From: Rhodanobacter sp.
GTDB lineage: Bacteria > Pseudomonadota > Gammaproteobacteria > Xanthomonadales > Rhodanobacteraceae
Direction: 5' to 3'
DNA: 64,000 bases
NCBI GenBank assembly: GCA_050737735.1
Contig: JBOHYM010000031.1
Coordinates: 18,132 to 82,131 of the forward strand
The notes beneath the pieces are model-generated. The model did not search any database, was not told where the DNA came from, and worked only from the letters and a program-made list of their open reading frames with translations. The position numbers and the translations under genes are program-made. Position 1 is the stretch's first letter; each line of letters begins with the position of its first letter. Shown here one piece after another: positions 5,270 to 44,167 of this stretch.

Positions 5270-5327
5270 AGCCAGCGAAGGCTGCATGTGGCATTGCCGC
5301 TGGCCGCCAGCCTCTGAGCGCGATAGC

Positions 5328-5690: not shown

Positions 5691-5741
5691 GCCCGCATGC
5701 TGACGCAGCGGCATGACAGGCGAGTGACGAGTCGGCCGGCA

Positions 5742-6834: not shown

Positions 6835-7331
6835 AACTACCTGCCTTGCCATGGCTGCTCGCCGGCCTGCTCGCGGCTGGCGGCGCACAGGCCACTGCCG
6901 CCGACCATGTGCATGCCAGCCATGCCTGGATCCGCGTGCTGCCCGGCGACCTGCCGGCCGGGGCCTATGTCACGCTGCGGAACGACGGCGACCAGCCGGT
7001 GGCGCTGAGCGGTGCCCGCAGCACGGCCTACGCCGAGGTAATGCTGCACCACAGTTCCAGCGCGGGCGGCATGAGCCGCATGACCATGGTCGATGCGCTG
7101 ACCGTGCCGGCCCACGGCACCGCGGTGCTGGCGCCAGCCGGCTATCACCTGATGCTGATGAAGGCGGCTACGCCGGTGAAGCCGGGCGATACGGTCAGGC
7201 TGACGCTCACCTTCACCGATGGCAGCACGCTGGCCACCGACTTCATCGCACGACCGGCCAATACGGTGGATGATGGCAACGATCAGGCCATGCCGGCGAC
7301 GGGAGCGATGGATCCGCACGCGGGCCACTGA
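6831..7331 (+). CDS. Periplasmic copper chaperone PCu(A)C
   Basis: Signal peptide; H...M...H.M motif (MLHHS..GGMSRM; GYHLMLM); ATGA overlap with the sco gene. Confidence 0.9.
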   Translation: MKLPALPWLLAGLLAAGGAQATAADHVHASHAWIRVLPGDLPAGAYVTLRNDGDQPVALSGARSTAYAEVMLHHSSSAGGMSRMTMVDALTVPAHGTAVLAPAGYHLMLMKAATPVKPGDTVRLTLTFTDGSTLATDFIARPANTVDDGNDQAMPATGAMDPHAGH

Positions 7332-7345
7332 GCCCACCGCGAAGC

Positions 7346-8224
7346 TCAGTCCGGCACGATCACATCGACAGCCGCATGTGTGGGCGGCCGCCGCCTTGGC
7401 AGACTGCGCGGCAAGCGTCCGCTGCGTGACAGCCGCAACCATTGGCGCAGCGCCAGCAGCCCGCCGATCGACTCGATCATGGCCGCCGGCACCCAGGTAA
7501 TCACGCCGCCGATCAACTGCCCGGTCAGCACGTTGAAGGTGAACGCGCGGCCGCAGATCTCGAAGATCGGGTACAGGTCGGTCTTGGAAAACGTGACTAT
7601 GGCGCCGGCGAGGATCTGCGGCGTCATGGTGATCCCCGGCGACAGCACGCGCAGGCCCGCGGTCATCCGTCCCGGCGGATGCGGCCGGTGATCGAGTACC
7701 AGCGACCAGTAGGCGAAGCCGCTGATCAGCATCGTCCAGTTCATGAAGCGGTAGATGCGCCAGTCCAGCATCGCCAGCGTCTGCAGGGCCGGAACCAGCC
7801 AGATCAGCACGAACACCACGAACAGCACGGTGGCCACCAGCGGGTTCAGGATTACCCCGCTGAGCAGCCGCCACGGCCACGACCGCTGCAGCGGCCGCAG
7901 CACGCGCACTCGCCACGCCAACGGCAGGCCGGCGCGCAGCACGGAAGCCGGATAGGTGGCGACGATCAGCAGCGGCGCCAGGTGATGCAGCAGCAACTGC
8001 TGGATGCGGTGTATGAAGAATTCATGCTCGGCGTAATAGTCCAGATAGGTCTGCAGCGACAGGTAGATGATCGCCATGCCGATCCAGAACGCCAGTTTGC
8101 GGCCGAAACTCACCGGCAACCGGCGGCTGCCGCGCAGGTACAGCACGCAGGTCCCCACGAAGATCGCGAGGAACACCCACGAAAACTCCCACGGCACGAT
8201 CCATTTCAACAACGTTGCGATCAC
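7346..8224 (-). CDS. Cytochrome c oxidase assembly protein (caa3 CtaG-like)
   Basis: Multi-TM; HRIQQLLLHHLAPLL and GQLIGGVITWVP motifs. Confidence 0.85.
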   Translation of the reverse strand: MIATLLKWIVPWEFSWVFLAIFVGTCVLYLRGSRRLPVSFGRKLAFWIGMAIIYLSLQTYLDYYAEHEFFIHRIQQLLLHHLAPLLIVATYPASVLRAGLPLAWRVRVLRPLQRSWPWRLLSGVILNPLVATVLFVVFVLIWLVPALQTLAMLDWRIYRFMNWTMLISGFAYWSLVLDHRPHPPGRMTAGLRVLSPGITMTPQILAGAIVTFSKTDLYPIFEICGRAFTFNVLTGQLIGGVITWVPAAMIESIGGLLALRQWLRLSRSGRLPRSLPRRRPPTHAAVDVIVPD

Positions 8225-8384: not shown

Positions 8385-10304
8385 TCATCTGCGCTGACGA
8401 CTGCGCCGACTACGGCGCCAGCCGTAAAGCAGCCCGATCAACACCACCAGCGCCGGCACCAGCACGATGTTGATGAACTTCACGCGCAGCCCGAGCGCGT
8501 CGATCTCGGCGTTGAGCTGATGCTGCACCTCGCGCAGCTCCTTGTTGATCGCCAGCTGGCGCTGGCGGAACTGCTCGATTTCCTGCCGTTGCTCGGCAGT
8601 GGCAGTACCGCCATGGCCGCCCTTGGCCGGCTGCAACTCGTCCAGGCGGCGCCTGGTCACGGCCAGTTCCTGTTCCAGCTCCTGTTCCTTGGCCTTGAAT
8701 TTCTGATCGGCCGCGTTCTGCAACGCCAGCACGCGGGTGAAGGGGCGCTGCGAAGTGGAGCGGCCGCGGATCGACAGCAGTGCCGAGGAACCGCTGAGGT
8801 TGTCGACCAGGTTGGTGACGAAATCGCCGTTGTTGGCGAAGGCCTGCATCATCGTCTGGCCGAGCATGGTCTGTGGCTCCACCCACAAACGGTCGCTGAG
8901 CAGGTCGGTATCGGCGATCAGGATCACCTCGGCATTCGGTGCGGAATGGGCCAGGTATCCCGGCTGACCGGCACGCTCGGGAAACGCGCTGTTGAGCGTG
9001 CCGCGCAGGCGCGCCGCCAGCACGTAGTGGTTGTTGTCCGGCTTGTATCCCTGCAGCAGCACGGTGGGATCACTGGCCGCATCCAGCACCCGCTGGGTGG
9101 GCACCACCTCGGCTTCCGCACTGCTTTGCAGCAAGGGGATCAGCCGCGTGCGCGCATCGTGTGCCAGATCGAAATAGCCGATGGTGGAGACGTTGATGCG
9201 CTGCAGGCTGGCCGTGATCGCGTCGTCGCGGTTGAGTTCCTGCGCACTGAGACCGAGCATCGCCGGGTGGTTGAAGCTGCTGCCGGCAAGTTCGATCGAC
9301 AACGCGCGGGAACGATCAAGCACCACCTTGCGTGGGTCGTAGAGCACGCCCCACGCCGCAAACAGGCGCGGCAGGTCCGAGCTGTGGTCGGGGAAGGTCG
9401 GGCTGTCGGCAACGTAGGGCGTGGTGTCGAGCTCCGCATCCGGATCGACGAACACCGCCAGATGACCGCCATGCAGCACGTACTGCTCGACCGCATACTG
9501 CACATCGGGCGGCAGCTGCTTGGGATGGATCAGCAGCAGCACCTTGATGCTCTCATCGACGTGCTTCAGCGTGGCCGCGTCCAGCATCTTCACGTCGAAC
9601 AACTGGTCAAGCTGCTGCATCACCGTCCACGCCGGCTGGCCGAGCATCGGGTTGCCGGCGACCGGCAGCGAGCTGACCACCCCGATCGACGGCTTGCTGG
9701 TCTGATTCAGCTCGTACAGCAGCTTGGCAATGTCGTATTCGACAAACGCCTCGCGCGCCGGATCGAAGAACGGGATCGCCAGTGTCTTCTCGGCCACGCG
9801 ATCCTCGATGGTGTCCCCGTCGGCACCTGCCACCATGGCGCTGCCGACCAGGCCGAAGAACACCCGCTCGCCGTTGCTGCCGCCATTGGCCGCGGTCAGG
9901 CCACCGCCTTCGGCACTCGCCTCGTCGTCCGAGTACGGCACCGGATCGATCACCTGCAAGCGGATGCGGCCGTGCGAACGCGCCACCATCTCCTGCAGCA
10001 TCTCGCGCACGCGCTGTTCGTAACTGCGCAGCTGCGGCAGGTCGCGGGTGGCGTGCTCGGAGAAATACAGGGTCAGTCGCAGCGGCCGATGCAGTGTGTC
10101 GACGATCTGCAGCGTGCCGGGTGTCAGCGTGTACAGCTTGTCGGTAGTGAGGTCGATCCGCGACGCATGCAGCAAGCGGCTGCTGGCCACGATCAGTGGC
10201 ACGAACACCAGCACCAGCAGTACCAGCCCTGCATACAGCGCGCTGCGCCGGGTCAGTCGCAGCGGGGTGGAAAGGACGGGCGACAGGTGCAGGCGCGGCA
10301 TCAC
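8385..10304 (-). CDS. GldG-like ABC transporter substrate-binding/auxiliary component
   Basis: RIDLTTDKLYTLTPGT, VIDPVPYSDDE, ADTDLLSD, NGDFVTNLVDNL; N- and C-terminal TM helices. Confidence 0.85.
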   Translation of the reverse strand: MMPRLHLSPVLSTPLRLTRRSALYAGLVLLVLVFVPLIVASSRLLHASRIDLTTDKLYTLTPGTLQIVDTLHRPLRLTLYFSEHATRDLPQLRSYEQRVREMLQEMVARSHGRIRLQVIDPVPYSDDEASAEGGGLTAANGGSNGERVFFGLVGSAMVAGADGDTIEDRVAEKTLAIPFFDPAREAFVEYDIAKLLYELNQTSKPSIGVVSSLPVAGNPMLGQPAWTVMQQLDQLFDVKMLDAATLKHVDESIKVLLLIHPKQLPPDVQYAVEQYVLHGGHLAVFVDPDAELDTTPYVADSPTFPDHSSDLPRLFAAWGVLYDPRKVVLDRSRALSIELAGSSFNHPAMLGLSAQELNRDDAITASLQRINVSTIGYFDLAHDARTRLIPLLQSSAEAEVVPTQRVLDAASDPTVLLQGYKPDNNHYVLAARLRGTLNSAFPERAGQPGYLAHSAPNAEVILIADTDLLSDRLWVEPQTMLGQTMMQAFANNGDFVTNLVDNLSGSSALLSIRGRSTSQRPFTRVLALQNAADQKFKAKEQELEQELAVTRRRLDELQPAKGGHGGTATAEQRQEIEQFRQRQLAINKELREVQHQLNAEIDALGLRVKFINIVLVPALVVLIGLLYGWRRSRRSRQRR

Positions 10305-30707: not shown

Positions 30708-31526
30708 ATGCGTCTCCATACTCCCATACCTGCTCAGCGGCCTCCCGGGCCTCATCCGCTGCGCCGCCTGCTGGCGCTGGTGCTGCTGACCCAGTTGATC
30801 GGCTGCACGCCCGCATCGAAGGCCATGGACAGCGGCGAACTGACGTTCGAGGGGCAGATCTACCGTGTCGTGCACCTGGATCTCAAGCGTGAACCGCTGA
30901 GCCTGCACTGGCGCGACCCGCAGAGCGGCCAGCCGTTCGGCAACATCGAAACATTGCGCCAGTGGGGCGAGGCACAGGGACAGCGACTGCTGTTTGCCAC
31001 CAACGCGGGGATCTACGACAAGCAGTTTGCGCCGCTCGGCCTGTACGTCGAAAACAGCAAGACCGTGGTGCCGCTGAACATGTCGCACGGCAACCCCGCG
31101 TCCGGCAATTTCTCGCTGCTGCCGAACGGTGTGTTCGTGGTATATCCGGATGGCCATGCCGCGGTACGTACCAGCACCGCCTTCAAGGCCGACAACAAGC
31201 CTGCGCAATGGGCGACTCAATCGGGCCCGATGCTGCTGATCGACGGCAAGCTCAACGACCAGTTCGTCGATGATTCCGCGAGCCTGAAATGGCGCAGCGG
31301 CGTATGCGTGAAAACGCCCACCGAAGTGATCTTTGCCGTGAGCGAAGCGCCCGTGAATTTCCATACGTTTGGACGGCTGTTCCGCGACAAGCTGGGTTGC
31401 CGTGATGCCTTGTATCTGGATGGCAGCATTTCCCAACTGTACGTCGATGGCGAGGGCTATGCGGGCGCGCCGGCCTTCATGGTGAAACCCTATGCCGGCA
31501 TCTTTGCCGTGTTTGCCAAACCGTGA
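30708..31526 (+). CDS. Phosphodiester glycosidase family (YigE/DUF2233-like) exported protein
   Basis: LFATNAGIY, GNFSLLPNGVF, QSGPML, RSGV, ALYLDGSIS. Confidence 0.8.
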   Translation: MRLHTPIPAQRPPGPHPLRRLLALVLLTQLIGCTPASKAMDSGELTFEGQIYRVVHLDLKREPLSLHWRDPQSGQPFGNIETLRQWGEAQGQRLLFATNAGIYDKQFAPLGLYVENSKTVVPLNMSHGNPASGNFSLLPNGVFVVYPDGHAAVRTSTAFKADNKPAQWATQSGPMLLIDGKLNDQFVDDSASLKWRSGVCVKTPTEVIFAVSEAPVNFHTFGRLFRDKLGCRDALYLDGSISQLYVDGEGYAGAPAFMVKPYAGIFAVFAKP

Positions 31527-33952
31527 CGACCCACCCTGCAACGTCTCGGCGCTGGCGTATCCTGCGCGCCCTGCTGCTCGTCCTGGCGATGCTGCTGCTG
31601 GCCGCGCTGGCGACCGGCTGGTGGCTGCTCGCCGGCAGCCGTGCCCGGCTCGATGGTGTGCGCCGCCTGCCCGGCCTGAGCGCCAGTGTCAGCCTCAGCC
31701 GCGATGCACTGGGCACCGTCACCCTCGAAGGGAAAAACCGTACCGATCTCAGCTACGCGCTCGGCTACGTGCACGCGCAGGAGCGCTTCTTCGCGATGGA
31801 CCTGATGCGCCGCATGGCCGCAGGCGAGCTATCCGCCCTGGTCGGGCCGGCTGCGCTCAAGGTCGACCTGAACCACCGGCGCCATCGCCTGCGCGCCGTC
31901 GTCGAGGCCGCCTACGCACAGCTGCCGCCCACGCAGAAACTCCAGCTCGACCGTTATCGCGACGGCGTCAACGCCGGTCTCGCCGACCTGCGCGTGCGGC
32001 CGTGGGAATACCTGCTGCTCGGCAGCCAGCCGCAACGGTGGCGCTCGGAAGACAGCGCGCTGGTGATCGCCGCGATGTATCTGGACTTGAACAGCGACGG
32101 CCGCAACGAGCGCGAGCTGCGCATCGCCCAGATGCGCGCGGTACTGCCCGGCTCCCTTGTGGATTTCCTGCTGGCGCCCGACCCGGACTGGGAGGCACCG
32201 CTGAGCGGGCCGTTGTCGCCTTCGCCGGTGATTCCCGGTGCCGACGTATTCGATCTGCGTCACCTCGCACTGGCCAACGCGTCCATTGGATCGTCCGCCA
32301 GCCTGACCGCCGCCCTCGCGCCGGCACTCGATGCGCCACGCCCCGGCAGCAACAGTTTCGCGGTCGCCGGCGCACTCGGCGGCAATGGCGCGGCGATCCT
32401 CGCCAACGACATGCATCTGGGCCTGCGCGTACCGAACATCTGGTTCCGCACCCGCCTGCGCTATCCCGACCCGAGCGCACCGAACGGACTGCGCGATGTC
32501 AACGGCGTCAGCCTGCCCGGCACGCCGGCGATGATTGTCGGCTCCAACGGCCAGATCGCCTGGGGCTTCACCAACAGCTATGGCGACTGGCAGGACTGGG
32601 TGCGCGTGCTGCGCGATCCATCGAACCCCGGCCGCTACAAGGTGCCGGAAGGCTGGGCCAGCATCGAGGCCCACGTCGAACACATCCGGGTCAAGGGCAA
32701 ACCGGACACCCTGCTCACCGTCGAAGACACCCGCTGGGGTCCGATCATGGGCAAGGATGCTGACGGCACGCCGTTGGCGCTGGCGTGGATCGGTGCGCAG
32801 CCGCGTGGCTACAACGTCGAACTGATGCAACTGGAGCGCATGCCGGACGTGCACAGCGCGCTGGACCTGGCGCCGCAGCTGGGCATGCCGCCGCAGAACC
32901 TGCTGGTCGCCGACAGCCGCGGACAGATCGGCTGGACGATTGCCGGCAACAGCATCCCGTTGCGTGCCGGCATCGATCCGCTGCTGCCGTCCGACTGGTC
33001 CGAGTCAGGTACGGGCTGGGTGGGCTGGGCCGCGCCCGCGCAATATCCGCGTATCGAGCATCCCGCCGAGGGCCGCTTGTGGACCGCCAACAACCGCACG
33101 GTCAGCGGCGATGCGCTGGCCTTGCTCAGCAATGGCGGCCACGATCTGGGCGCGCGCGCGCAGCAGATCCGCGACGACCTGCACGCACGCGCCGGCTTCA
33201 CTCCCGCCGACCTGCTCGACATCCAGCTGGACAACCGTGCCGTGTTCCTGAGCCGCTGGCAGCAATTGCTGCAGCAGACGCTGGCCGATAGCCGGAACCC
33301 GGCGTTGCAGCAACTGCGTCAGCTCAGCGCGACCTGGCAGCGCCACGCCACGGTCGACAGTGTCGACTACCGGCTGGTGCGTGCGTTCCGCAGCCGGGTC
33401 AGCGAGATCGCGCTGGTGCCGTTCGCCGCGCAGGTGAAGCACCGCTACGACGACTTCAGCTGGCCTGGCGAGAACAGTGCCGAAGCGGCCGTATGGGCGA
33501 TGATCCAGGCACAACCGACGCAACTGCTCGATCCGAGATACCACGACTGGCACGCCCTGCTGCTCGACGCCGCCACGCAGGTTGCCAGCGAACTCGACCA
33601 GCAACCCGGCGGCCTCGCCGCACGCAGCTGGGGTGAGCACAACCGCAGCGAGATCAACCACCCGCTGGCCGCCGCACTGCCGCACTGGCTCGGTCGCCTC
33701 ATCGACATGCCCGACCAGCCGCTGCCCGGCGACAACAACATGCCGCGCGTCGCCGCGCCCGGCTTCGGCGCGTCCGAACGCCTCGACGTGGCCCCGGGCC
33801 ACGAGGCCGAAGGCATCCTCGAAATGCCCGGCGGGCAGAGCGACAACCCGCTGTCGCCGTACTTCGGCGCGGGGCACGAGGATTGGGTCAAGGGGCGGCC
33901 AACACCGCTGTTGCCGGGGCCGGACCAGCACACCCTGACCCTCGAACCGTAG
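31523..33952 (+). CDS. Penicillin acylase family Ntn-hydrolase
   Basis: N-terminal TM; GYVHAQERFFAMDLMRR; beta-chain start GSNSFAV; LANDMHL; PGGQS.NPLSP. Confidence 0.92.
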   Translation: MTTHPATSRRWRILRALLLVLAMLLLAALATGWWLLAGSRARLDGVRRLPGLSASVSLSRDALGTVTLEGKNRTDLSYALGYVHAQERFFAMDLMRRMAAGELSALVGPAALKVDLNHRRHRLRAVVEAAYAQLPPTQKLQLDRYRDGVNAGLADLRVRPWEYLLLGSQPQRWRSEDSALVIAAMYLDLNSDGRNERELRIAQMRAVLPGSLVDFLLAPDPDWEAPLSGPLSPSPVIPGADVFDLRHLALANASIGSSASLTAALAPALDAPRPGSNSFAVAGALGGNGAAILANDMHLGLRVPNIWFRTRLRYPDPSAPNGLRDVNGVSLPGTPAMIVGSNGQIAWGFTNSYGDWQDWVRVLRDPSNPGRYKVPEGWASIEAHVEHIRVKGKPDTLLTVEDTRWGPIMGKDADGTPLALAWIGAQPRGYNVELMQLERMPDVHSALDLAPQLGMPPQNLLVADSRGQIGWTIAGNSIPLRAGIDPLLPSDWSESGTGWVGWAAPAQYPRIEHPAEGRLWTANNRTVSGDALALLSNGGHDLGARAQQIRDDLHARAGFTPADLLDIQLDNRAVFLSRWQQLLQQTLADSRNPALQQLRQLSATWQRHATVDSVDYRLVRAFRSRVSEIALVPFAAQVKHRYDDFSWPGENSAEAAVWAMIQAQPTQLLDPRYHDWHALLLDAATQVASELDQQPGGLAARSWGEHNRSEINHPLAAALPHWLGRLIDMPDQPLPGDNNMPRVAAPGFGASERLDVAPGHEAEGILEMPGGQSDNPLSPYFGAGHEDWVKGRPTPLLPGPDQHTLTLEP

Positions 33953-34132: not shown

Positions 34133-36409
34133 ATGACGCAGGCCTCCGTGATGCCGGCTTTCCGGTACCGCGCCTTCATCAGCTACAGCCACCGGGACAA
34201 GTCCTGGGCCGACTGGCTGCACAAGGCGCTGGAAACCTATGCGGTGCCGAAGCGGCTGGTCGGCCAGACCACGGCGGCCGGCGTGATCCCCAGGCGCCTC
34301 GCGCCGATCTTCCGCGATCGCGACGAGCTGGCCAGCGCCACCGACCTCGGTCGCAAGGTCAACGAGGCGCTCGGGCAGTCCGCGGACCTGATCGTGATCT
34401 GCTCGCCGCACTCGGCCACGTCGCACTGGGTCAACGAGGAAGTGCTGGCGTTCAAGCGGCTGGGCCGCAGCGAGCGCATCTTCTGCCTGATCGTGGACGG
34501 CGAACCCAACGCCAAAGACCTGCCAGGCCGCGCGGCGGAAGAGTGTTTCGCCGAGCCCTTGCGCTACACCGTCGATGCGAATGGCCACGTGACCCACGTA
34601 CCTACCGAGCCGGTCGCCGCCGACGTGCGCCCCGGCAAGGATGGCAAGACCAACGCCAAGCTGAAGCTCATCGCCGGCATGCTGGATCTTGGTTTCGACC
34701 AGTTGAAGCAGCGCGAGCTGCAGCGTCGCACCAAGCGCATGACCGCGATTGCTGCACTGGCCATGGTGGTGATGACGCTGACAATCACGCTGGCGATCGC
34801 GGCGCTGATCTCACGCCATGATGCCGTCATTGCGCAGCACAAAGCCGTGGTCGCGCAACAGGCTGCGGAGCGCCGCCAGAAGCAGGCCGAAGGCCTTGTC
34901 GGGTTCATGCTGGGAGATCTCAATGAAAAGCTGGCGCAGGTGTCGCGCCTGGACATCATGCAAAGCGTCGACGACAAGGCGATGGCGTACTTCGCTGCGT
35001 TACCTACTTCCGATGTTACCGACGAAACGCTTGAACAGCGCGCCAAGGCATTGGAGAAGATCGGCAGTGTCCGTTTCGCGCAAGGACATCTCGACGCAGC
35101 ACTGGAATCGTATCGGGCAGGCGCGAACCTTGCCAGCACCTTGGCTCATGAGGCACCCGAGGATTCAACGCGACAGATCGCCTACTCACGAATGCTCACC
35201 TTTATTGGCATGGCCCACTGGAGCCAGGGCAGGCTCGACGCCACACAACAAGATTTTGAATCAGCGCAGCAGGCACTCCGGGTATCGAAATCCGGAGTAA
35301 AAGATAATCTGCCGCAGGTGTTCCAGGTAGCCATGCTCGATAACGACATCGGCCATGTGCTCGAGGCGCGTGGTCAACCGGAGGCCGCGGAAGCCGCGTA
35401 CCGCAACGCCATGGTGCTGTCACAAAAGCTGGTCGCGGCCAAGCCCGACAACACCGACTTTCTCTTGCAATTAGGAATAGCACACAACAACCTCGGCAAA
35501 ATGGCGTTGATGCGCGGCGACCTGGCAACGGCAATCGCCGAATACCGCGCCGACGATGCCATCGAATCGAACCTGTCCGCACGAGATCCGAAAAACAATG
35601 ATCAACTAGCCAACACATTTACGGTGCGGGCAATCCTCGGCCGCACCTTGGCCTTGGCCGGCGAAGTTGATGCGGGTATGCGCGACTTGCAGCAGGCAAT
35701 AGATATAGCGACCCGGCTGTCCACGCTGGACCCATCGCAGACGCAAATTCAGGAAAATCTCGCGCTGTATCAAATGCAATTGGGCCGGCTTCTGCGTCTT
35801 GGGAACCAGCTACCCAAGGCAGTCGTGCTAACTGAACGCGCTTTGCAGGGGTTTGCAACGCTGACCAAGCAGGATCCAGGAAATGCTGAATGGAAGCGAG
35901 AACTCGCCGAAGTGCAGACCGAACATGCGGCTCAGACGCTTTCCGGTGGCGACAAAATGGAGGCGCAAAAGCAAGCACAAACTGCGCTGGACATGCTCGA
36001 GTCACAGTTTGCCAAGCAGCCAGACAACCACGCCCTACTGCTGGTGACTACGAACGCCAAGCTTCTGCTTGCCGATGTCATTGGCAATGCGCCATCGGCG
36101 CAGCGGTTGCGGAAAGAAGCACTCATCATGGCGCAAGCGCCGAGAGGCAGCCCTGGCGATCCACGCCTGCTGGCACTGCAGGTTAAGGCGCTGCTAGCAC
36201 TCGGAAAGACGACCGAAGCGACGACCGTCATCCGGAACCTATGGAAAGCTGGCTATCGCGACCCGGCGTTGCTCTCGGTACTGCACCGTGCGGACGTCGA
36301 CTACCCGGTTAATGCCCTGTTCGCGAAGCGCATCGCACAACCCACGCAAGTCGATACCACCCATCTCGCCCGCCCGACGACAGCTGCGCAAACGGTTGAC
36401 ACGCGGTAG
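34133..36409 (+). CDS. TIR-TM-TPR protein, copy 1
   Basis: TIR motifs AFISYSH, IFRDRDEL, LIVICSPHS, WVNEEV (catalytic Glu position); basic patch QRELQRRTKR then one hydrophobic helix; long helical TPR-like C-terminus. Confidence 0.88.
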   Translation: MTQASVMPAFRYRAFISYSHRDKSWADWLHKALETYAVPKRLVGQTTAAGVIPRRLAPIFRDRDELASATDLGRKVNEALGQSADLIVICSPHSATSHWVNEEVLAFKRLGRSERIFCLIVDGEPNAKDLPGRAAEECFAEPLRYTVDANGHVTHVPTEPVAADVRPGKDGKTNAKLKLIAGMLDLGFDQLKQRELQRRTKRMTAIAALAMVVMTLTITLAIAALISRHDAVIAQHKAVVAQQAAERRQKQAEGLVGFMLGDLNEKLAQVSRLDIMQSVDDKAMAYFAALPTSDVTDETLEQRAKALEKIGSVRFAQGHLDAALESYRAGANLASTLAHEAPEDSTRQIAYSRMLTFIGMAHWSQGRLDATQQDFESAQQALRVSKSGVKDNLPQVFQVAMLDNDIGHVLEARGQPEAAEAAYRNAMVLSQKLVAAKPDNTDFLLQLGIAHNNLGKMALMRGDLATAIAEYRADDAIESNLSARDPKNNDQLANTFTVRAILGRTLALAGEVDAGMRDLQQAIDIATRLSTLDPSQTQIQENLALYQMQLGRLLRLGNQLPKAVVLTERALQGFATLTKQDPGNAEWKRELAEVQTEHAAQTLSGGDKMEAQKQAQTALDMLESQFAKQPDNHALLLVTTNAKLLLADVIGNAPSAQRLRKEALIMAQAPRGSPGDPRLLALQVKALLALGKTTEATTVIRNLWKAGYRDPALLSVLHRADVDYPVNALFAKRIAQPTQVDTTHLARPTTAAQTVDTR

Positions 36410-36467: not shown

Positions 36468-36851
36468 ATGCCGAATGTAACTCTCAACGTGACACTCAAG
36501 GATGGCAACCTCGACGTCGATCAGGCAGGAAATGGAAACCAGATGGGCCACGGTCAGACGACCACGATCTCCTGGCACCTCACGACAGCCGGGGGAACGT
36601 TCAATGCACTCGACGCCAGCAACAAGGGATTTTCTTGGATCCAGACGCCGCCCGATAACGTGTTCACCGGGCTGCAGTTGTTACAAAACGGAAAAATCCA
36701 GATAACGGACAACAACACCGACCCTGGCGGCATCAACTCTGCAGGCAGCTGGATTTACCAGCTGTGGGCAACCATCAATGGCACCCAGTATTCGACCATA
36801 GCGACCACCCCGACGGGAACTGTTACCAATCCAAACATCAAAAATAACTGA
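36468..36851 (+). CDS. Small beta-rich hypothetical protein (DP-EP/DUF1888-like), partner 1
   Basis: 127 aa, SD GGAG, no signal peptide; starts MPNVTLNVTL, ends TNPNIKNN. Confidence 0.75.
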   Translation: MPNVTLNVTLKDGNLDVDQAGNGNQMGHGQTTTISWHLTTAGGTFNALDASNKGFSWIQTPPDNVFTGLQLLQNGKIQITDNNTDPGGINSAGSWIYQLWATINGTQYSTIATTPTGTVTNPNIKNN

Positions 36852-36876
36852 CCACCCCAAAGGGACTGAAGCGACC

Positions 36877-36931
36877 AAAGGGGCCAGGTTCACTTTTCCC
36901 ACGCCGTGGTCATCCAGGGTGGTGAACCTGA
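36877..36931. repeat. Cassette-boundary inverted repeat, copy 1
   Basis: AAAGGGGCCAGGTTCAC..GTGAACCTG: CAGGTTCAC (36885-93) / GTGAACCTG (36922-30). Confidence 0.7.
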
Positions 36932-37002
36932 ATCCCGTAGCAGATATCTGAAAATCAGAAGGACTCCCAGTCAGGGAACCGTCGCAACAAGTGCGAGATG
37001 TC

Positions 37003-39147
37003 ATGACGCAAGGTTCGGGGTCACCAGCGTTCCGCTACTACGCCTTCATCAGCTACAGCCACCAGGACAAGGCCTGGGCCGACTGGCTGCACAAGGCGCT
37101 GGAAACGTACGCGGTGCCGAAACGACTGGTCGGCCAGACCACGCTGGCCGGCGTGATCCCCAAACACCTCGCACCGATCTTCCGCGACCGCGACGAGCTG
37201 GCTAGCGCGCACGATCTCGGCGACAAGGTCAACCAGGCGCTGGCACAGTCGGCCAACCTGATCGTGATCTGCTCGCCGCGCTCGGCTGCCTCGCGCTGGG
37301 TGCAGGAGGAAGTGCTGGCATACAAGCGCCTCGGACGCAGCGAGCGAATCTTTTGCCTGATGGTGGATGGCGAGCCCAACGCCAGTGACCTGCCCGGCCG
37401 CGATACCGAAGAATGTTTCGCCTCCGCGCTGCGTTTCCAGCTCGACCCAGACGGCCAACCCACCACGCAACACGCCGAGCCGATCGCCGCCGATGCTCGA
37501 TCTGGCAAGGACGGCAAGGGCAACGCCAAACTGAAGCTGATCGCCGGCTTGCTGGATATCGATTTCGATCGCCTGAAGCAGCGCGAATTAAGGCGGCGCA
37601 ACCGGCGCCTGGCCGCGGTCACCTCGATGGCGCTGGTGGTGATGGCGTTGACCACAACGCTGGCCGTGTTCGCACTAATCTCACGCCACGACGCCCGGCG
37701 ACGCCAGGCCCAAGCCGAAGATATCCTGGGTTTCATGCTCGGCGATTTGCGCGGCAAGCTCGCTACCGTCGGCCGGCTCGACCTGATGGTGGCAGTCGAC
37801 GACAAGGCCACCGCGTACTTCGGCACACTGCAGCCACGTGATCTCAACGAACACGCGCTGGAGCAACAGGCCCGATTGTTGACCGGCATCGGCCAAGTGC
37901 GCTTGGACCAGGGTCACGACGACAAAGCCATGCTGGCGTTTCGCGACTCCTATGCGCGCAGCAGCGAACTGCTCAGGCGTCAACCTGGAAACGGCCAAAG
38001 ATTGTTCGATAGGGCCCAGGCCGAATACTGGATTGGGTTCGCCTTCTGGCGCCAAGGGCAACTGGACAATGCGGAAACCTGGCTACGGCGTTATCGCGAC
38101 AGCGCGCTAAAGCTCGCTGCGATGGATCGAACGAATTTCGCCTGGCAGCGTGAGGTTGCCTACGGCCAGGAAAACCTGGCCACACTGGATCTGGCCCGCG
38201 GCCTCGACAAACCGGCCGAGCGCATCTTCCGCGACGCGTATGAGCTTTATCTTGGCTGGATGAAAACGCACCCGCACGACACCGGATTGCGTGACGAAGC
38301 GGCCAATATTGCCTCCTATCTGGGCAGCCTGGCGATGCAGGACGGCCGGCTTGCGGAGGCGCGCGCTCGTTACGCGGAACAGGTAACTGACATTTCCGAC
38401 AACCGTGCCGCAGAACCCGACAATGCACAATGGGAGTCAGAGTGGCCGGACGCGAGCGTGTTCCTGGCGGAGGTACAGGCTGATACGGGCGACGCTGCCG
38501 ACGCCCGTCGCGGTTCGGCAGATGCGACAGCCCTGGACGAAATGCTGGCCAAGCAGGACCCCACCAACAAAACCTGGCAGCTACAGCTTGGCAAAGGCTA
38601 CTGGTGGCTGGCACGCCTCGATTCGCGTGCGGCACCGGATCAAGCCTGGAGCGAGGCGCTCGGCGCGGAACGCATCTTCGCCGCCACGCACGCGTCAGAA
38701 CCGAAGGACAGTCTCGCCCTGCACTGGTTGGCGAAATCGCAGGTACTGCTGGGCGAACTGGCGTGGCGACGTGGTGAGAGTGCCGAAGCAACGACTTGGC
38801 TGTCTCGCGCCAACGCCGAGCTGGCACCAGCCCTCGCCACCCAACAAAACAAGAACGCTTACCGGTTGCTGCCGCCAGAGTTGCACCTGCTCTTGGGCGA
38901 CGTTGCAGCGCAACGCGGCGATGACGCAGCCGCACGTGCTGCCTGGTCCGTTGCCGAACAGCAACTGCGCGAAGGTACAAATCCGCCGACATTCGATCAC
39001 CTCGACCTGCTCGTGCGCGTCTTGCTGGCGCAGCATCGAGACGCCGTGGCGGCGCCTTATCTAGCAAGACTGAAGGCAAGTGGGTACGTGCCGCTGTACC
39101 CGTGGCAGGAGGGGCCCGGCAGCCAAACAATGGCTGAATCTCGATGA
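37003..39147 (+). CDS. TIR-TM-TPR protein, copy 2
   Basis: TIR nearly identical to copy 1 (WVQEEV), basic patch RELRRRNRR, TM LAAVTSMALVVMALTTTLAVFALI, divergent TPR-like C-terminus. Confidence 0.88.
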   Translation: MTQGSGSPAFRYYAFISYSHQDKAWADWLHKALETYAVPKRLVGQTTLAGVIPKHLAPIFRDRDELASAHDLGDKVNQALAQSANLIVICSPRSAASRWVQEEVLAYKRLGRSERIFCLMVDGEPNASDLPGRDTEECFASALRFQLDPDGQPTTQHAEPIAADARSGKDGKGNAKLKLIAGLLDIDFDRLKQRELRRRNRRLAAVTSMALVVMALTTTLAVFALISRHDARRRQAQAEDILGFMLGDLRGKLATVGRLDLMVAVDDKATAYFGTLQPRDLNEHALEQQARLLTGIGQVRLDQGHDDKAMLAFRDSYARSSELLRRQPGNGQRLFDRAQAEYWIGFAFWRQGQLDNAETWLRRYRDSALKLAAMDRTNFAWQREVAYGQENLATLDLARGLDKPAERIFRDAYELYLGWMKTHPHDTGLRDEAANIASYLGSLAMQDGRLAEARARYAEQVTDISDNRAAEPDNAQWESEWPDASVFLAEVQADTGDAADARRGSADATALDEMLAKQDPTNKTWQLQLGKGYWWLARLDSRAAPDQAWSEALGAERIFAATHASEPKDSLALHWLAKSQVLLGELAWRRGESAEATTWLSRANAELAPALATQQNKNAYRLLPPELHLLLGDVAAQRGDDAAARAAWSVAEQQLREGTNPPTFDHLDLLVRVLLAQHRDAVAAPYLARLKASGYVPLYPWQEGPGSQTMAESR

Positions 39148-39258
39148 CCTGCGCGACCCCATCCAGAGACACAGCCGACCTTCTATTCATCGGACCGGTG
39201 GACCGCGCGTCCGTCGTTTGGGCCCGGAGCGGCCGAACCTCAAGCGGGAGCAATGGCA

Positions 39259-39669
39259 ATGCCAAACAGCAATATCACAGTGGTGCTGGATGTTTGCAAC
39301 TTCCACAACAACGGCGGTGGGTGGACCAATATAAGTGCCGCTAACGGCAGCGCCTACAGCTACAAATATTCCGGCGGCAACGACCCCGACCACAGCAATG
39401 CGAACGGGCATATAAGGCACACCGTCAGCCATGGTGTCGCCACCATCGAAGTGCAGTTGCAATGCGACCCACGTTACGTGTTCAACCAAACCTCCTTCGA
39501 GGGAAATAACCAAGGCCAACTAGGATGGGTAGGCACCGAACCGAGAAGACGGACAATCACGAATCAATGCACCCAGGCGATCACTGCGAATTACAAGATA
39601 AAAATCAGGGATACGACTGCCGGCACTACTCTCGATTGCGATCCAGCGATCAGAAATGTACCGGCCTAG
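39259..39669 (+). CDS. Small beta-rich hypothetical protein (DP-EP/DUF1888-like), partner 2
   Basis: 136 aa, SD GGGAG, no signal peptide; starts MPNSNITVVLDV, ends DCDPAIRNVPA. Confidence 0.75.
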   Translation: MPNSNITVVLDVCNFHNNGGGWTNISAANGSAYSYKYSGGNDPDHSNANGHIRHTVSHGVATIEVQLQCDPRYVFNQTSFEGNNQGQLGWVGTEPRRRTITNQCTQAITANYKIKIRDTTAGTTLDCDPAIRNVPA

Positions 39670-39677
39670 CAGACAAA

Positions 39678-39769
39678 AGAATCAGGTTCATTTTTGGCGT
39701 ACTTCCCGTGCGGGATAGTGAACCTGATTCTCTGGTGACAGATGAGAGCAACGGGCCAGATTCATTTTT
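39678..39769. repeat. Cassette-boundary inverted repeat, copy 2, plus an extra half-site
   Basis: AGAATCAGGTTCA (39678-90) / TGAACCTGATTCT (39719-31) perfect 13-bp arms; related GGGCCAGATTCATTTTT at 39753-69. Confidence 0.7.
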
Positions 39770-39879: not shown

Positions 39880-40086
39880 ATGACGCAGCCCCTCTCGATA
39901 CCGGCTTTCCGCTATCGCGCCTTCATCAGCTACAGCCACCAGGAAAAGGCCTGGGCCGACTGGCTGCACAAGGTGCTGGTAACCTGCGCAAGCCCGAAGC
40001 GGTTGATCGGCCAGACCACGATGGCCGGCGTGATCTGCTGGCATCTCGCGCCGAGCTTCCGCGACCGCGACAATGCCAACCACTGA
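39880..40086 (+). pseudogene. Truncated third TIR copy (68 aa)
   Basis: MTQPLSIPAFRYRAFISYSHQEKAWADWLHK..LAPSFRDRD; homology stops abruptly before the catalytic Glu; the stop overlaps the next gene by 14 nt. Confidence 0.85.
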
Positions 40087-41797
40087 CTGCCCAACTCCGA
40101 TCTCGGTGCCGCTGGTGATCGGCGTCACCAGCCACCGCAATATTTCCGCAAGCGAAATCGAGCCGATCCGGCAACGTGTGCGAGACTTTTTTGCCCGACT
40201 GAAGCGCGAACTTCCCGAGTTGCCGCTGGTGCTGCTGTCGGCCCTGGCCGAGGGCGGCGATCAGCTGGTGGCGCAGGAAGCGCTCGCTGCCGGTGCGCGC
40301 CTGCTGGCTCCGTTGCCATTGCCGCGGGAACTGTACGCGGACGACTTCACCGATCCGGCAGCACGCGTCGGCTTCGACAGCTTGTGTGCACAGGCCGAAG
40401 TCGTGCAGTTGCCGCTGCGGGCGGGGCAATCGCTGCACGATGTCAGTTCGCCCGGCACCGCGCGCGACCGCCAGTACGCCCAGGCCGGGGTCTACATCGC
40501 CAGCCATTGCCACATCCTGCTGGCGATATGGGACGGCAAACCCTCGACCCGGATCGGCGGCACCGCTCAGATCGTGAAGTATCACCTGAGCGGTGCGATG
40601 CCCGGCCAGAGCGATCGACGCCGCAGCGCACGTCACGAACTGGGCGCCGGCGACGAACACCTGCTCTACCATATCGTCTGTTCGCGCAATGCTGCCGACG
40701 GCGCACCCGCCGCCGGCCTGGAGCCGTTGCAGACGCTGTGGCGCAGCACCGACACGGCGGTGGCGACGGACCCGGGCAAGCCGGCCGAGTTCCATCGGAT
40801 GTTCGCGCACATGGCCGAGTTCAATGCCGACTGCGCGAAGTACGCTGCCGCCATCGATGCCGCAGCACCAGAGGCACGTGATGCGCCGGCAGATGTCTCG
40901 ACGAACGTCGACCGCCTGTTCCACGCCGCCGACTGGCTGGCGATCCATTTCCAGAAACGGGTACTGCTGGCGCTGCGTTCGACCTATACGCTGGCCGCGC
41001 TGATGGGTATTGCGTTCACCTGCTACGCGCATCTGCCGCAACAGAACTACCTGATCTACCTGTTCCTGCTGTTGTTCGCGCTTGGCGCCTTCGTGGCCGT
41101 GCTCGCCCGTCGCCGCGACTGGCATCGCAAGTATCTGGACTATCGCGCGCTGGCGGAGGGCCTGCGCATCCAGTCGTACTGGCGGCGCGCGGGCATCTCG
41201 GTGAACAGCGAGCATGAATTCGCGCATGACAACTTTTTGCAGAAACAGAACGTCGAACTCGGCTGGATCCGCAACGTGATGCGTGCCTCCGCCCTGTATC
41301 CACCCACCGGCCCGGCAGAACCCGCATCGCCCGAGCTGGCGCGTGTCATTGCGGAATGGGTGGGCGAATCGGGCAAATCGGGACAACTCCATTACTACGA
41401 ACGCAAGACCGCCGAGCGCACCGGCCTGCACCATGTCACCGAGACGATCGGATCGATCAGCCTGTGGGGTGGCATAACCATCAGTGTGTTCCTCGCCGCG
41501 TTCGTGTTCAGGCTTTCGGATGAAGCGAAAACCATCCTGGTGACGGTGATGGCGGTGCTGTCGATCATCGCCGCGGTGCGCGAGGCCTATGCCTACCGCA
41601 AGGCCGACAAGGAACTGATCAAGCAGTACCGCTTCATGCAGCGCATCTTCGCCAGCGCGCGCGCGGCGCTGGACCGCACGCATGATCCGGTAGAGCAGCG
41701 CGAGATCCTGCTCTCGCTGGGCGATGCGGCGCTGACCGAGCACGCGGAGTGGACGCTGATGCAGCGCGAGCGGCAGGTGGAACAAGGCAAGCTGTGA
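40073..41797 (+). CDS. YpsA-like SLOG domain fused to two 2TM (SLATT/DUF4231-like) effector modules
   Basis: IGVTSHR, SALAEGGDQL and LAIWDG..GGTAQIV SLOG motifs; four TM helices in two pairs; WHRKYLDYRALAEGLR, GQLHYY and EHAEW motifs. Confidence 0.75.
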   Translation: MPTTDCPTPISVPLVIGVTSHRNISASEIEPIRQRVRDFFARLKRELPELPLVLLSALAEGGDQLVAQEALAAGARLLAPLPLPRELYADDFTDPAARVGFDSLCAQAEVVQLPLRAGQSLHDVSSPGTARDRQYAQAGVYIASHCHILLAIWDGKPSTRIGGTAQIVKYHLSGAMPGQSDRRRSARHELGAGDEHLLYHIVCSRNAADGAPAAGLEPLQTLWRSTDTAVATDPGKPAEFHRMFAHMAEFNADCAKYAAAIDAAAPEARDAPADVSTNVDRLFHAADWLAIHFQKRVLLALRSTYTLAALMGIAFTCYAHLPQQNYLIYLFLLLFALGAFVAVLARRRDWHRKYLDYRALAEGLRIQSYWRRAGISVNSEHEFAHDNFLQKQNVELGWIRNVMRASALYPPTGPAEPASPELARVIAEWVGESGKSGQLHYYERKTAERTGLHHVTETIGSISLWGGITISVFLAAFVFRLSDEAKTILVTVMAVLSIIAAVREAYAYRKADKELIKQYRFMQRIFASARAALDRTHDPVEQREILLSLGDAALTEHAEWTLMQRERQVEQGKL

Positions 41798-41854: not shown

Positions 41855-42940
41855 TCATGCGTTGCCTTTCCTGGCAAGCAACGTCAGAAATTCATCATCC
41901 CGGACGTTGGCGACCGACCATGCCAGCCGTAGTCGCATCATCGTGGGCAATCGCCGCGGCTGGCCGCCGTCGGGCGACTTGCCCAGTTGCATCCGCAGAC
42001 TGGCCAGATACATGGATTGCCGGACGGCCGTGCGGCGCTTCGTTTCGATGTTCTCGAAGCCAGCAGCCTGCAGCAGGCTGATCAGCCCCGTTCGACTGAA
42101 CAGCACCAGATGCCTTGGCGTTTCCAGGCCGCGCCAGTTCCTGCCCCAGCGCTGAGCGCCACGGCTCTCGATGTTCGGGGTGTCGATGAAAAGCGCACCA
42201 TCCGGTTTCAGCAGGCGATGGACGGCCTGGATGAACGGCACGGGTTCATGCAGATGCTCCAGCACATGACTCAGCGAGATCGCATCGAAGACGCCGGGCT
42301 CGTCGGCGAACAGCCCGACGGAACCCACCCTGGCATCGAGGCCGCGCTGCTTCGCAGCGGCGACCGCCGCAGGATCAGGATCGACGCCCGCCACGTCCCA
42401 GCCCGCATCGCGCGCATTGAACAGGAAGTCGCCGTTGCCACAGCCGATATCCAGCAGCTTCTGGCCCGGCTGTGGCTTCGGCAAAAAGCGAAACTCGGCA
42501 TCGCGCTTCTGTCGTCGAAGCGGCAACACCTTCGCCAGCCAGACACCTACCCTGCTGGCGGGTTGGCGCTGGGTGCCATAACGCGCGTTCACGTAACCGT
42601 TGGTCAGCGCCCGCTTCAGGTGTCGCACGATGCCTGGCTTGTCCGACGGGGTCCGCGGTCCATCGGCGTTGTGTGTGTAGTAGTCCCCGTAGGCCTTGCC
42701 GATGCTCGCCTCGCTCGGCCGCGGATCGAGATACGCGCTGTGGCAATGGGTACAGCGGTAAAGCATCCAGCGGCCCGGCGCCACAAAGAACGCGTTGTCC
42801 ACCAGATCCTGCTGCAGCAGTTCGCGCGCCGTGCCACGGCAGACCGGGCACGCGGACACGTGCTCCAGTTCGTCGGCAGGCCAGGGCTGCTGCCATGCCG
42901 GCGTGGATTCCGATCCCTTGTCTTCGATGGTTTCCGGCAT
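41855..42940 (-). CDS. Class I SAM-dependent methyltransferase with N-terminal Zn ribbon
   Basis: CPVC..CTHC, LLDIGCGNG, SHVLEH, PRHLVLFS. Confidence 0.88.
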   Translation of the reverse strand: MPETIEDKGSESTPAWQQPWPADELEHVSACPVCRGTARELLQQDLVDNAFFVAPGRWMLYRCTHCHSAYLDPRPSEASIGKAYGDYYTHNADGPRTPSDKPGIVRHLKRALTNGYVNARYGTQRQPASRVGVWLAKVLPLRRQKRDAEFRFLPKPQPGQKLLDIGCGNGDFLFNARDAGWDVAGVDPDPAAVAAAKQRGLDARVGSVGLFADEPGVFDAISLSHVLEHLHEPVPFIQAVHRLLKPDGALFIDTPNIESRGAQRWGRNWRGLETPRHLVLFSRTGLISLLQAAGFENIETKRRTAVRQSMYLASLRMQLGKSPDGGQPRRLPTMMRLRLAWSVANVRDDEFLTLLARKGNA

Positions 42941-43009
42941 GCCCTGATCCACGCGTTCCAGCTCAAGCGGTAGCAGCGGCGGACAGTGCCACACGAAGAC
43001 GGCACGTGC

Positions 43010-44167
43010 CTAGCGCAAGTCCTCACGTTGCAGCAGCCGTTCACAAATCGCCCGGTAGATCGCCGGCAACCGCTCCAGCTCGTCCAGCGCGATGCACTCG
43101 TCGACCTTGTGGATCGTCGCATTGACCGGACCGATCTCGACGACTTCGGCACCCATCGGTGCAATGAAACGACCGTCCGAGGTGCCACCGCCCGTGCTCT
43201 GTTCGGGATCGAGACCACACAGATCGCGACACACCTCCACCACCGTCTCGCGCAGCACGCCACCAGGCGGAGTGAGGAACGGCTCGCCGGACAGGTTCCA
43301 GTCGAGTGCGAAATCCAGACCGTGCCGATGCAGGACCGCCTCGGTACGCGCACGCAGATCCTCGGCGCGGCTGGCGGTGGAGTAGCGGAAATTGATCAAC
43401 GCCTTCAACTCGCCCGGAATCACGTTGTTGGCGCCGGTGCCCGCGTTGAGGTTGGAGACCTGGAACGAGGTGGGCGGGAAATCATGGTTGCCCTCGTCCC
43501 AGCGTTCGGCGGCCAGCTCGGCCAGCGCCGGCGCGAAGGCATGGATCGGGTTCAACGCTTTCTCCGGATACGCCACATGCCCCTGTACACCGCGCACGCT
43601 GAGCGTGCCCGACAACGAACCGCGCCGGCCTACCCGGATCAGGTCACCGAGTTTTTCCTTCGCCGACGGTTCGCCCACCACGCACCAGTCGATGCGCTCG
43701 CCACTGGCACGGAAATGCTCCACCACCTTGCGCACGCCGTCGAGGTTGGTCGGCCCTTCCTCGTCGCTGGTCAGCAGCAGGGCGACCCGGCCGCGGTGAT
43801 CAGGATGCGCCGTCGCAAACTGTTCCAGCGCCACCACCATCGCCGCCACCCCGCCCTTCATGTCGGCCGCGCCACGGCCGTATAGACGGCCATCGCGGAT
43901 CGTCGGTTCGAACGGCGGGCTCTGCCATGCGGTTTCCGGACCACTGGGCACCACGTCGACATGGCCAAGAAAGGCCAGCGTCGGTGCCGATGACGCCTGC
44001 CCGCCATGTACGGCCCACAGGTTGTCGACCTCGCCGTAGCGCAGGTGCTCGACGCGAAAGCCCACCCGCTGCAGGCGTTCCCCGATCAGCCGCAGGCAAC
44101 CGGCATCATCGGGCGTCACCGAACGGCGGCGGATCAAGTCGCAGGCAAGATCGAGGACAGCGGACAT
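43010..44167 (-). CDS. dapE: Succinyl-diaminopimelate desuccinylase
   Basis: [61 protein letters not shown]. Confidence 0.96.

Follow-up and report, generated by a model that had tools for sequence, protein, structure and literature searches.

Directly behind each of two paralogous receptor genes in the 64,000-nucleotide (64-kb) stretch of Rhodanobacter sp. DNA analysed here (contig JBOHYM010000031.1; hereafter the window) stands a small gene, and these two genes, partner 1 and partner 2, are the subject of this work. The receptors combine a Toll/interleukin-1 receptor (TIR) domain, one transmembrane (TM) helix and a region of tetratricopeptide repeats (TPRs), and the proteins encoded behind them end in a short tail, [N/D]PxIxN. 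Our results leave little doubt that partners of this kind occur as obligate companions of such receptors, and that their function depends chiefly on the tail. In the reading that we prefer, to which we give a probability of about 0.4, the TPR region, which is predicted to be periplasmic, binds the tail as a portable ligand.

The partner proteins and their C-terminal tail

The two open reading frames (ORFs), of 127 and 136 amino acids (aa), had been described in the initial annotation as lying directly behind TIR-TPR genes, and their coordinates, lengths, ribosome-binding sites and mode of selection confirm this description (Table 1). Both have a GGAG-type ribosome-binding site 6–8 nt upstream of the ATG, follow their receptor genes after 58 nt (partner 1) and 111 nt (partner 2), and are under purifying selection, with a ratio of nonsynonymous to synonymous substitution rates (dN/dS) of 0.10–0.35 against orthologues; there are 30 close homologues of partner 1 and 6 of partner 2, all of conserved length. 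As also claimed, the two proteins have little overall similarity (BLASTP E 0.079, not significant; hhalign 2%), start with MPN and an alternating strand, are rich in Asn, Gly and Thr, and carry the tail: partner 1 begins MPNVTLNVTL and ends TNPNIKNN, partner 2 begins MPNSNITVVLDV and ends CDPAIRNVPA, and the composition is T 16%, N 13% and G 12% in the former and N 12%, T 10% and G 10% in the latter. The reported absence of a signal peptide is borne out by hydropathy, which reveals no hydrophobic N-terminus in either window partner. Partner 1 has no Arg and no Glu in its 127 residues, and its gene has 53% GC in a 65% GC genome; such a composition is unusual among the cytoplasmic proteins of bacteria with high GC and is more often met in beta-proteins that are secreted or exposed on the surface.

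A profile search of 1.84 billion representative proteins placed partner 1 in a family (family 1) of at least 238 clusters at 50% identity, from Rhodanobacter, Thermomonas and many soil and water metagenomes, with lengths that are nearly all 120–145 aa. Only Y97, I124 and N126 are invariant columns in 112 diverse members, and M1, V8, W36, L38, F45, F55, W57, F66, G93, L99 and P122 are near-invariant (at least 90%). Partner 2 belongs to a second family (family 2), which numbers 21 sequences after a metagenome scan; its hallmarks are YSYKYSGG and the tail C-D-P-x-I-x-N followed by 0–7 residues, and CDPxIxN is kept across the 21 sequences with one exception that lacks the Asn. Profile–profile comparison of the two families with hhalign gave probabilities of 2.3%, 1.5% and 2.4%, the last with both expanded, and partner 2 scores only 2.8 bits against a hidden Markov model of 144 family-1 sequences. 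Since these comparisons detect no relation, homology of the two families is unproven, and the two agree in size, in the strand at the N-terminus, in the tail and in where their genes lie. Neither the partners nor their relatives matched a family in Pfam, NCBIfam, PADLOC or PHROGs, and the PDB returned no match for the partners by sequence (single sequences and three profiles). Judging from these searches, the partners constitute two undescribed protein families that share a conserved short linear motif, all of them without annotation.

The tail stands at the C-terminus in 253 of the 266 family-1 proteins of at least 100 aa (95%). Across these 253 tails, the residue before the Pro is Asn in 70%, Asp in 21% and another residue in 9%, the Pro is kept in 94% and the Ile in 96%, the rest having Val, and exactly one residue follows the tail Asn in 223 (88%). 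When the ORF ends in all six frames of the 64-kb window were searched with a relaxed form of the tail pattern, only the two partner genes were found, and the chance of the partner 2 tail, calculated from the composition of that protein, is about 3e-4.

Both partners had been called beta-rich. This holds for partner 1, whose AlphaFold2 model is all-beta with ten strands (predicted local distance difference test, pLDDT, 84; predicted TM-score, pTM, 0.78), and is weakly supported for partner 2 (pLDDT 50). Within the partner 1 model, the linker of residues 111–120 has a pLDDT of 58 and residues 121–127 one of 84. The model of partner 2 is too poor for a fold search, and the Foldseek results therefore cover partner 1 only: the best match is to MakC/MakD (PDB 8rqy; E 2.6e-4, TM-score 0.47, 12% identity, root-mean-square deviation 5.6 A), and the next neighbours are cupredoxins, Ig domains and uncharacterised phage proteins (PDB and BFVD, TM-score at most 0.47). 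MakC and MakD of Vibrio cholerae are accessory proteins of the cytosol, small and with a beta-sandwich fold, whose operon also encodes membrane-active proteins (PMC11484084). Unlike the partners, they have helices, lack an [N/D]PxIxN tail and occur in a different genomic context, and the TM-score stays below 0.5.

These data also bear on the assignment of the partners to the DP-EP (DUF1888) type, represented by Shewanella SO1698 (PF08985), in which the proteins would be beta-sandwiches that cleave themselves at Asp-Pro, or at Asn-Pro, and self-assemble, with partner 1 and its Asn-Pro as a degenerate member. The partners do resemble this family in their size of about 125 aa, their beta-rich fold and a D/N-Pro 5–9 residues from the C-terminus; Asp-Pro and Asn-Pro bonds are chemically labile, and the autocleavage of FlhB-type proteins at NPTH is a precedent for cleavage at Asn-Pro. 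However, neither window protein matched PF08985 with hmmscan at E<=1, and PF08985 is absent from the 15 families matched at E<=0.1 by the 112 family-1 members, each of these families by a single member, which leaves no match to it in 114 proteins, alongside the missing PDB sequence matches. Of the 50 best Foldseek matches of partner 1, none is labelled SO1698 or aspartic peptidase. Partner 1 cannot have an EP motif because it has no Glu, and the single EP of partner 2 (T-E-P, residues 93–95) is not conserved in its family alignment. Moreover, the D/N position is less conserved than the Ile and the Asn, which stand two and four residues past the Pro, and 6% of the tails have no Pro; given the frequencies of Asn, Asp and other residues before the Pro, a catalytic Asp-Pro is not a requirement of the family, and partner 1, with the majority residue, is a typical and not a degenerate member. 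The partners are thus not supported as peptidases of the DP-EP kind by their sequences, nothing in our analysis argues for cleavage of the tail bond, and we regard the DP-EP assignment as highly improbable.

Tail peptides and matching within loci

In related loci (given here by L numbers), the tail also ends small peptides whose genes lie behind those of the partners (Table 1). Those of L001, L016, L019–L022, L028, L033 and L037 are acidic, apparently disordered peptides of 50–60 aa without a signal peptide, and those of L004/L007, L017 and L019 are peptides of 36–66 aa with a Sec signal peptide and usually two Cys. Good Shine-Dalgarno sites precede all of these small genes, and several of the peptides are RefSeq hypothetical proteins (WP_168171088.1, WP_136259909.1), present in up to 397 contigs. 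The window contains no extra gene of this kind, and the tail is found there only on the leaderless 127- and 136-aa proteins. A 612-aa 'RHS' protein that clustered with a tail peptide was discarded, as it lacks the tail and is apparently a spurious cluster member.

The tails of a partner and a peptide from the same locus agree at 4.6 of 7 variable positions, as against 2.7 between loci (ten pairs; permutation p = 0.0006), and the agreement is also found in six diverse loci (p = 0.003). Partner and peptide both end in GRNPVIINR in L037, in TTTNPWIKN in L017 and in NPIIIN in L028, and the partner tail TTTNPWVRNN of L033 is matched by TTTLPWVRNN on the peptide. In L033 and L037 the matched tails are written in different synonymous codons, which argues for selection on the peptide and not for recent gene conversion; the matched tails of L017 are identical in their DNA, possibly through recent conversion.

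Three read-through variants among the metagenome proteins (P0020, P0022 and P0024) have lost the Asn and the stop codon of the first tail and keep the second tail intact at their end. They come from one Rhodanobacter lineage (L019–L022, about 7288–7650), in which proteins of 146–151 aa run into the tail of the downstream acidic peptide; their first tail has degenerated to DPMIKP, and the one at their end, NPQIKNL, is intact. A further observation concerns L008, where the spacer between two receptor–partner pairs (5135–5747) has a 40-aa ORF with a signal peptide (MKCIAQSFVSGIALTAGSTLASANA...) and, in another frame, a short ORF ending in AAGDAGDPEIENKDPE, like the tail of the neighbouring 118-aa partner; this spacer may be a frameshifted gene for a secreted tail peptide.

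The acidic tail peptides resemble leader-plus-core precursor peptides, and the tail could accordingly be thought of as a substrate or signal precursor, modified by the TIR domain (for instance by ADP-ribosyl transfer, cf. the His-ADP-ribose, His-ADPR, of type II Thoeris) or by a protease, whose product, and not a nucleotide alone, would control the SLATT-type membrane protein of the locus. The terminal position of the motif is strictly kept, and TIR domains can conjugate ADPR to acceptors (bioRxiv 10.64898/2025.12.03.692087). However, the loci examined do not share a conserved gene for a protease or a modifying enzyme, a structured 125-aa carrier would be unnecessary for this purpose, and exported carriers would never meet a cytoplasmic TIR domain. 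We therefore consider a precursor role very unlikely.

The receptors and the site of tail action

Wherever a locus has enough flanking sequence, the family-1 partner gene stands 16–75 nt behind a TIR-TM-TPR gene in the same orientation, in a set of loci that covers Rhodanobacter genomes and metagenome-assembled genomes, Thermomonas and unrelated metagenome contigs and at least five chromosomal contexts. In 16 further loci, the family-2 partner stands directly behind the receptor gene in 11 and directly ahead of it in 2 (L048 and L050), the remaining contigs being too short or ending at the partner. The expectation that homologues would be linked to TPR receptors in other genomes was thus checked and holds in every informative locus. 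Most loci also include a homologue of the SLATT-type protein, which lies downstream in loci of the Rhodanobacter type, and upstream in those of the Thermomonas type and in L037. There are one or two receptor–partner pairs per SLATT gene, and in L037 and L045 two partners follow one receptor. In L003, where no SLATT gene is near, ORFs of 128 and 103 aa without Pfam match lie behind the partner (8472–9219), and the receptor is preceded by genes for one protein with YD repeats and one with Sel1 repeats.

Receptors 1 and 2 match Pfam TIR_2 with E 7e-12 and 7e-14 (46 and 53 bits), and ThsB_TIR with E 5e-8 (33.8 bits), all above the cut-offs, and have TPR matches as well; the PADLOC 2023 models gave a weak TIR match only, and PDB searches with the TPR and TIR regions returned nothing informative. 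The W-V-x-E-E segment with the usual catalytic Glu is present in both, and their catalytic region is predicted to be intact. The probable start of receptor 1 is the ATG at 34133 (MTQASVMPAFRY), the mechanical ORF beginning at 34079. Each receptor has a single hydrophobic segment (residues 202–229; hydropathy threshold KD19>1.6), followed by about 500 residues with TPR matches. The basic stretch KQRELQRRTKR precedes the TM helix and there is no signal peptide; by the positive-inside rule, the TIR domain is therefore predicted to be cytoplasmic and the TPR region periplasmic. Between the two receptors, identity is 81% in the TIR domain and 24% in the TPR region.

The divergence of the partners tracks the predicted periplasmic part of the receptors. 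The Spearman correlation of partner identity with receptor identity is 0.81 for the periplasmic residues 247–330 (receptor 1 numbering), 0.68 for the TPR repeats in residues 331–560 and 0.70 from residue 561 to the end. Together with the constant adjacency, this upholds the proposal that the partners are cognate companions of the upstream receptors.

TPR domains are classic readers of short, often C-terminal, peptides, as in Hop, PEX5 and the RRNPP receptors. The tail is terminal, portable across three unrelated carriers, matched within loci and always encoded beside a TPR gene, and for these reasons we favour its role as a recognition peptide of the TPR region. The exported carriers would place the motif where the TPR region is predicted to be. 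Besides the secreted peptides, these include family-2 partners with a lipobox or a Sec signal peptide in L045 and L054 (Table 1), which brings their domain into the compartment predicted for the TPR region; window partner 2 and most of its family-2 relatives are leaderless, and different lineages thus seem to employ the domain on opposite sides of the inner membrane. The idea that the partners are ligands of the TPR region, already put forward in the initial annotation, has hence gained new, though indirect, support from the portable, co-varying tail, the secreted tail peptides and the exported family-2 partners, and stays at the tentative level given above.

We propose the following scheme. 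The two partners would be cognate accessory proteins of the two paralogous receptors and, with these and the SLATT-type membrane protein, would make up a Thoeris-like TIR signalling locus. Each partner would be a small beta-rich carrier that presents the C-terminal recognition peptide [N/D]-P-x-I-x-N, to be bound by the TPR domain of the adjacent receptor. Binding would set or change the oligomeric state of the receptor and with it, by activation or inhibition, a NAD-consuming, signal-producing TIR activity, the product of which would gate the SLATT-type protein. A more specific version of this scheme would follow a bacterial TLR-like logic, in which the periplasmic TPR region reads a self-encoded, locus-specific tail and carriers held in the cytoplasm meet it only on inner-membrane breach or lysis, of the same cell or of kin. 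The tail would then be a damage signal of "cytoplasm in the wrong place", answered through TIR nucleotides and a SLATT pore. This version, which comes near to the danger signal suggested in the initial annotation, is speculative, and we consider it doubtful.

Several observations weigh against the tail as a TPR ligand, and the compartment is the chief difficulty. The leaderless 14-kDa partners would be on the cytoplasmic side, with the predicted TPR region across the inner membrane and no known route to it, and an export signal or N-terminal hydrophobic segment was found in 0 of the 274 family-1 proteins checked. In the AlphaFold2 monomer of partner 1, the tail is packed as a beta-strand of the sandwich (E123–126), and in the partners it could be partly structural, or swapped among partner molecules instead of bound by the TPR region. 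The core of the tail is conserved and the TPR repeats are hypervariable, a pattern more like that of a constant docking site than of one that determines specificity. The co-variation of partner and TPR region could reflect linkage in a recombining cassette and not contact, and we have weighted it lightly for this reason. Finally, no SLATT gene lies within 7 kb of the locus in L003, L014 and L026. For the leaderless carriers, three resolutions are possible, namely action on the cytoplasmic face, mutual strand exchange, or sequestration of the ligand until the membrane is damaged.

In the first of these, the partner would remain cytoplasmic and attach to its own receptor at the TIR domain or the juxtamembrane linker, where it would serve as a safety catch or co-activator through beta-augmentation by its C-terminal strand; the secreted tail peptides of other genomes would then serve another purpose. 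The lack of export signals in the 274 family-1 proteins and both window partners is in line with such a cytoplasmic regulator, as is the cytosolic location of MakC and MakD, the nearest structural neighbours. In addition, the 238 family-1 clusters include no fusion of a partner to a receptor C-terminus, an absence that is expected if partner and TPR region are in different compartments. However, partner identity correlates poorly with that of the TIR domain (Spearman 0.28) and moderately with that of the linker (0.45), the window partners are unalignable despite TIR domains that are 81% identical, and neither the exported family-2 partners nor the exported tail peptides fit a purely cytoplasmic site. 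A cytoplasmic regulator is therefore, in our view, rather unlikely.

The packing of the tail raises a second alternative, in which the beta-sandwich itself receives the tail: the last strand, on a flexible tether, would be donated in trans, leading to self-assembly or to competition with the tails of the small peptides, and the TPR region would not be the binding site. Residues 123–126 indeed form a strand after the low-confidence linker, the length of the linker differs among members, and the peptide tails match those of the neighbouring partner within a locus. Nevertheless, strand exchange leaves the constant tie to a TIR-TM-TPR gene unexplained, and tail peptides with a signal peptide would occupy another compartment than leaderless sandwiches, so that we judge it quite unlikely, and we retain the TPR region as the preferred binding site.

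Locus setting, related systems and significance

The locus spans 34.1–41.8 kb on the + strand and comprises five genes and one gene relic (Table 1). Its GC content is 0.60–0.61, with 0.53 in the partner genes and about 0.65 in the surroundings.

Table 1. Coordinates of the window locus and of tail-bearing or exported genes in related loci.
Feature	Source	Position	Strand	Description
Receptor 1	Window	34133..36409	+	N-terminal TIR (ThsB-like), one TM helix, C-terminal TPR region predicted periplasmic
Partner 1	Window	36468..36851	+	127 aa, leaderless beta-sandwich (predicted model), unannotated family 1
Partner 1 tail	Window	36825..36848	+	T-N-P-N-I-K-N-N-COOH, residues 120-127; family signature [N/D]PxI[K/I]N+1
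Hairpin copy 1	Window	36886..36929	+	AGGTTCA-N30-TGAACCT, 35 nt past partner 1 stop codon
Receptor 2	Window	37003..39147	+	TIR-TM-TPR paralogue of receptor 1
Partner 2	Window	39259..39669	+	136 aa, leaderless, family 2; YSYKYSGG hallmark, four conserved Cys, C-D-P-x-I-x-N tail
Partner 2 tail	Window	39637..39666	+	C-D-P-A-I-R-N-V-P-A-COOH, residues 127-136
Hairpin copy 2	Window	39684..39725	+	15 nt past partner 2 stop codon
Third-receptor relic	Window	39880..40086	+	First 68 codons of a TIR domain (MTQPLSIPAFRYRAFISYSH...); partial Pfam TIR_2 match
SLATT-type protein, putative effector	Window	40073..41797	+	574 aa: soluble N-terminal domain of ~280 aa, then four TM helices
Small tail-peptide gene	L001	8653-8811		Behind partner
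Small tail-peptide gene	L004/L007	6525-6725		Behind partner
Small tail-peptide gene	L016	7494-7655		Behind partner
Small tail-peptide gene	L017	4527-4637		Behind partner
Small tail-peptide genes	L019	7495-7650, 7875-8075		Behind partner
Small tail-peptide gene	L028	7493-7657		Behind partner
Small tail-peptide gene	L033	7514-7666		Behind partner
Small tail-peptide gene	L037	6735-6917		Behind partner
Exported family-2 partner	L045	3480-3947		Lipobox or Sec signal peptide
Exported family-2 partner	L045	about 4095-4556		Lipobox or Sec signal peptide
Exported family-2 partner	L054	4857-5345		Lipobox or Sec signal peptide

The SLATT-type protein matches Pfam DUF4231 with 28.1 bits (cut-off 24.7) and, below the cut-offs, SLATT_3 (23.1 bits), NCBIfam SLATT_1 (34.9 bits) and SLATT_6; its four TM segments were recognised by hydropathy. 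The N-terminal domain (40073–40912) has no match in Pfam, NCBIfam, PADLOC or the PDB, and is the obvious candidate for a signal-binding module.

The hairpin AGGTTCA-N28-30-TGAACCT occurs in exactly two copies in the 64 kb, one behind each partner gene, where 0 are expected by chance, and with one mismatch also in L008. As it has no T-run, it is not a typical intrinsic terminator, and it may mark the edge of a cassette or serve to process or stabilise RNA. The first 300 nt of the receptor 1 gene recur as direct repeats at 36990 and 39867. The TIR relic overlaps the start of the SLATT gene by 14 nt, and the same 68-aa ORF is present in this arrangement in the closest relatives, L008 (8620–8826), L009 and L010; it is either the remnant of a deleted third receptor–partner cassette or an upstream ORF kept for coupling to SLATT translation.

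In Rhodanobacter genomes, including L001 and L008, the locus occupies one slot between a penicillin amidase and a dapE-like M20 peptidase (31523–33952 and 41855–44167 in the window). The number of cassettes and the partner family vary among these genomes, and a methyltransferase gene flanks the locus on either side; the slot looks like a variable island. The window sequence is almost confined to one cave metagenome, with 99% of the sampled words, and otherwise occurs in metagenome DNA runs; none of the sampled sequencing runs that contain it is an RNA run. A promoter and terminator scan of the locus gave a signal at background level, and tblastn of partner 1 against plasmid and phage collections gave no match.

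At the system level, Thoeris, and especially type VII Thoeris, is the closest relative. Type VII Thoeris consists of the TIR protein ThsB and the SLATT effector ThsH, with cyclic ADP-ribose (cADPR) as signal (bioRxiv 10.64898/2025.12.03.692087). Both systems have a ThsB-like TIR protein beside a SLATT/DUF4231 protein with several TM segments, several TIR paralogues per effector, and a location in a variable chromosomal slot with a GC dip. In contrast, the TIR proteins of the window cross the membrane once and end in some 500 aa of TPR region, and a small tail-bearing partner follows each TIR gene as a third component. Neither the TM-TPR extension nor the tail-bearing companions were found in the searched passages of the preprint, nor in Pfam, NCBIfam or PADLOC. 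By analogy, a role of the locus in phage defence may be proposed.

The arrangement of a TPR receptor gene followed by a small ORF with a putative C-terminal ligand recalls the RRNPP pairs Rap/Phr, PlcR/PapR, NprR/NprX and AimR/AimP, whose ligands are the last few residues of the small ORF, and the small ORFs of the related loci L004, L017 and L019, with a signal peptide and a conserved C-terminal peptide, and the matching within loci extend the likeness. In Firmicutes and their phages, RRNPP receptors act in the cytoplasm through helix-turn-helix (HTH) or phosphatase outputs, and peptide import depends on Opp. Here, in contrast, the hosts are Gram-negative, a TIR domain provides the output, the periplasm is the predicted place of the TPR region, and the tail is carried mainly by a folded protein of 125 aa without a leader; Pfam and NCBIfam gave no match to an HTH domain or an RRNPP family (Rap, NprR, PlcR, PrgX) in the receptors.

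In its topology, the system is reminiscent of TLR4/MD-2, ToxR/ToxS and VtrA/VtrC, in which a small beta-rich co-component is paired with a receptor that spans the membrane once, between an ectodomain of repeats or sensor type and a signalling domain in the cytoplasm. In ToxR/ToxS and VtrA/VtrC, the genes of receptor and co-component are neighbours and evolve rapidly together as a cassette (PMC9214523). However, MD-2, ToxS and VtrC are exported or membrane-anchored and most of the partners are leaderless, and neither the Pfam scan nor the best 50 Foldseek matches revealed sequence or significant fold similarity between the partners and these three proteins.

Thoeris-type TIR systems are currently described as a soluble TIR sensor and an effector. 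The widespread loci considered here are built differently, with the TIR domain tethered to a large TPR region that is predicted to be periplasmic. Even if the ligand model fails, there remain two sizeable families and a conserved short motif that so far lack annotation. If the model is true, the locus would encode a peptide-gated transmembrane TIR receptor in bacteria, which would link peptide recognition in the style of quorum sensing, a TLR-like topology and Thoeris signalling. A tail that is the TPR ligand would moreover allow TIR activation to be addressed directly by experiment, since synthetic peptides of six to twelve residues could be supplied externally to cells.

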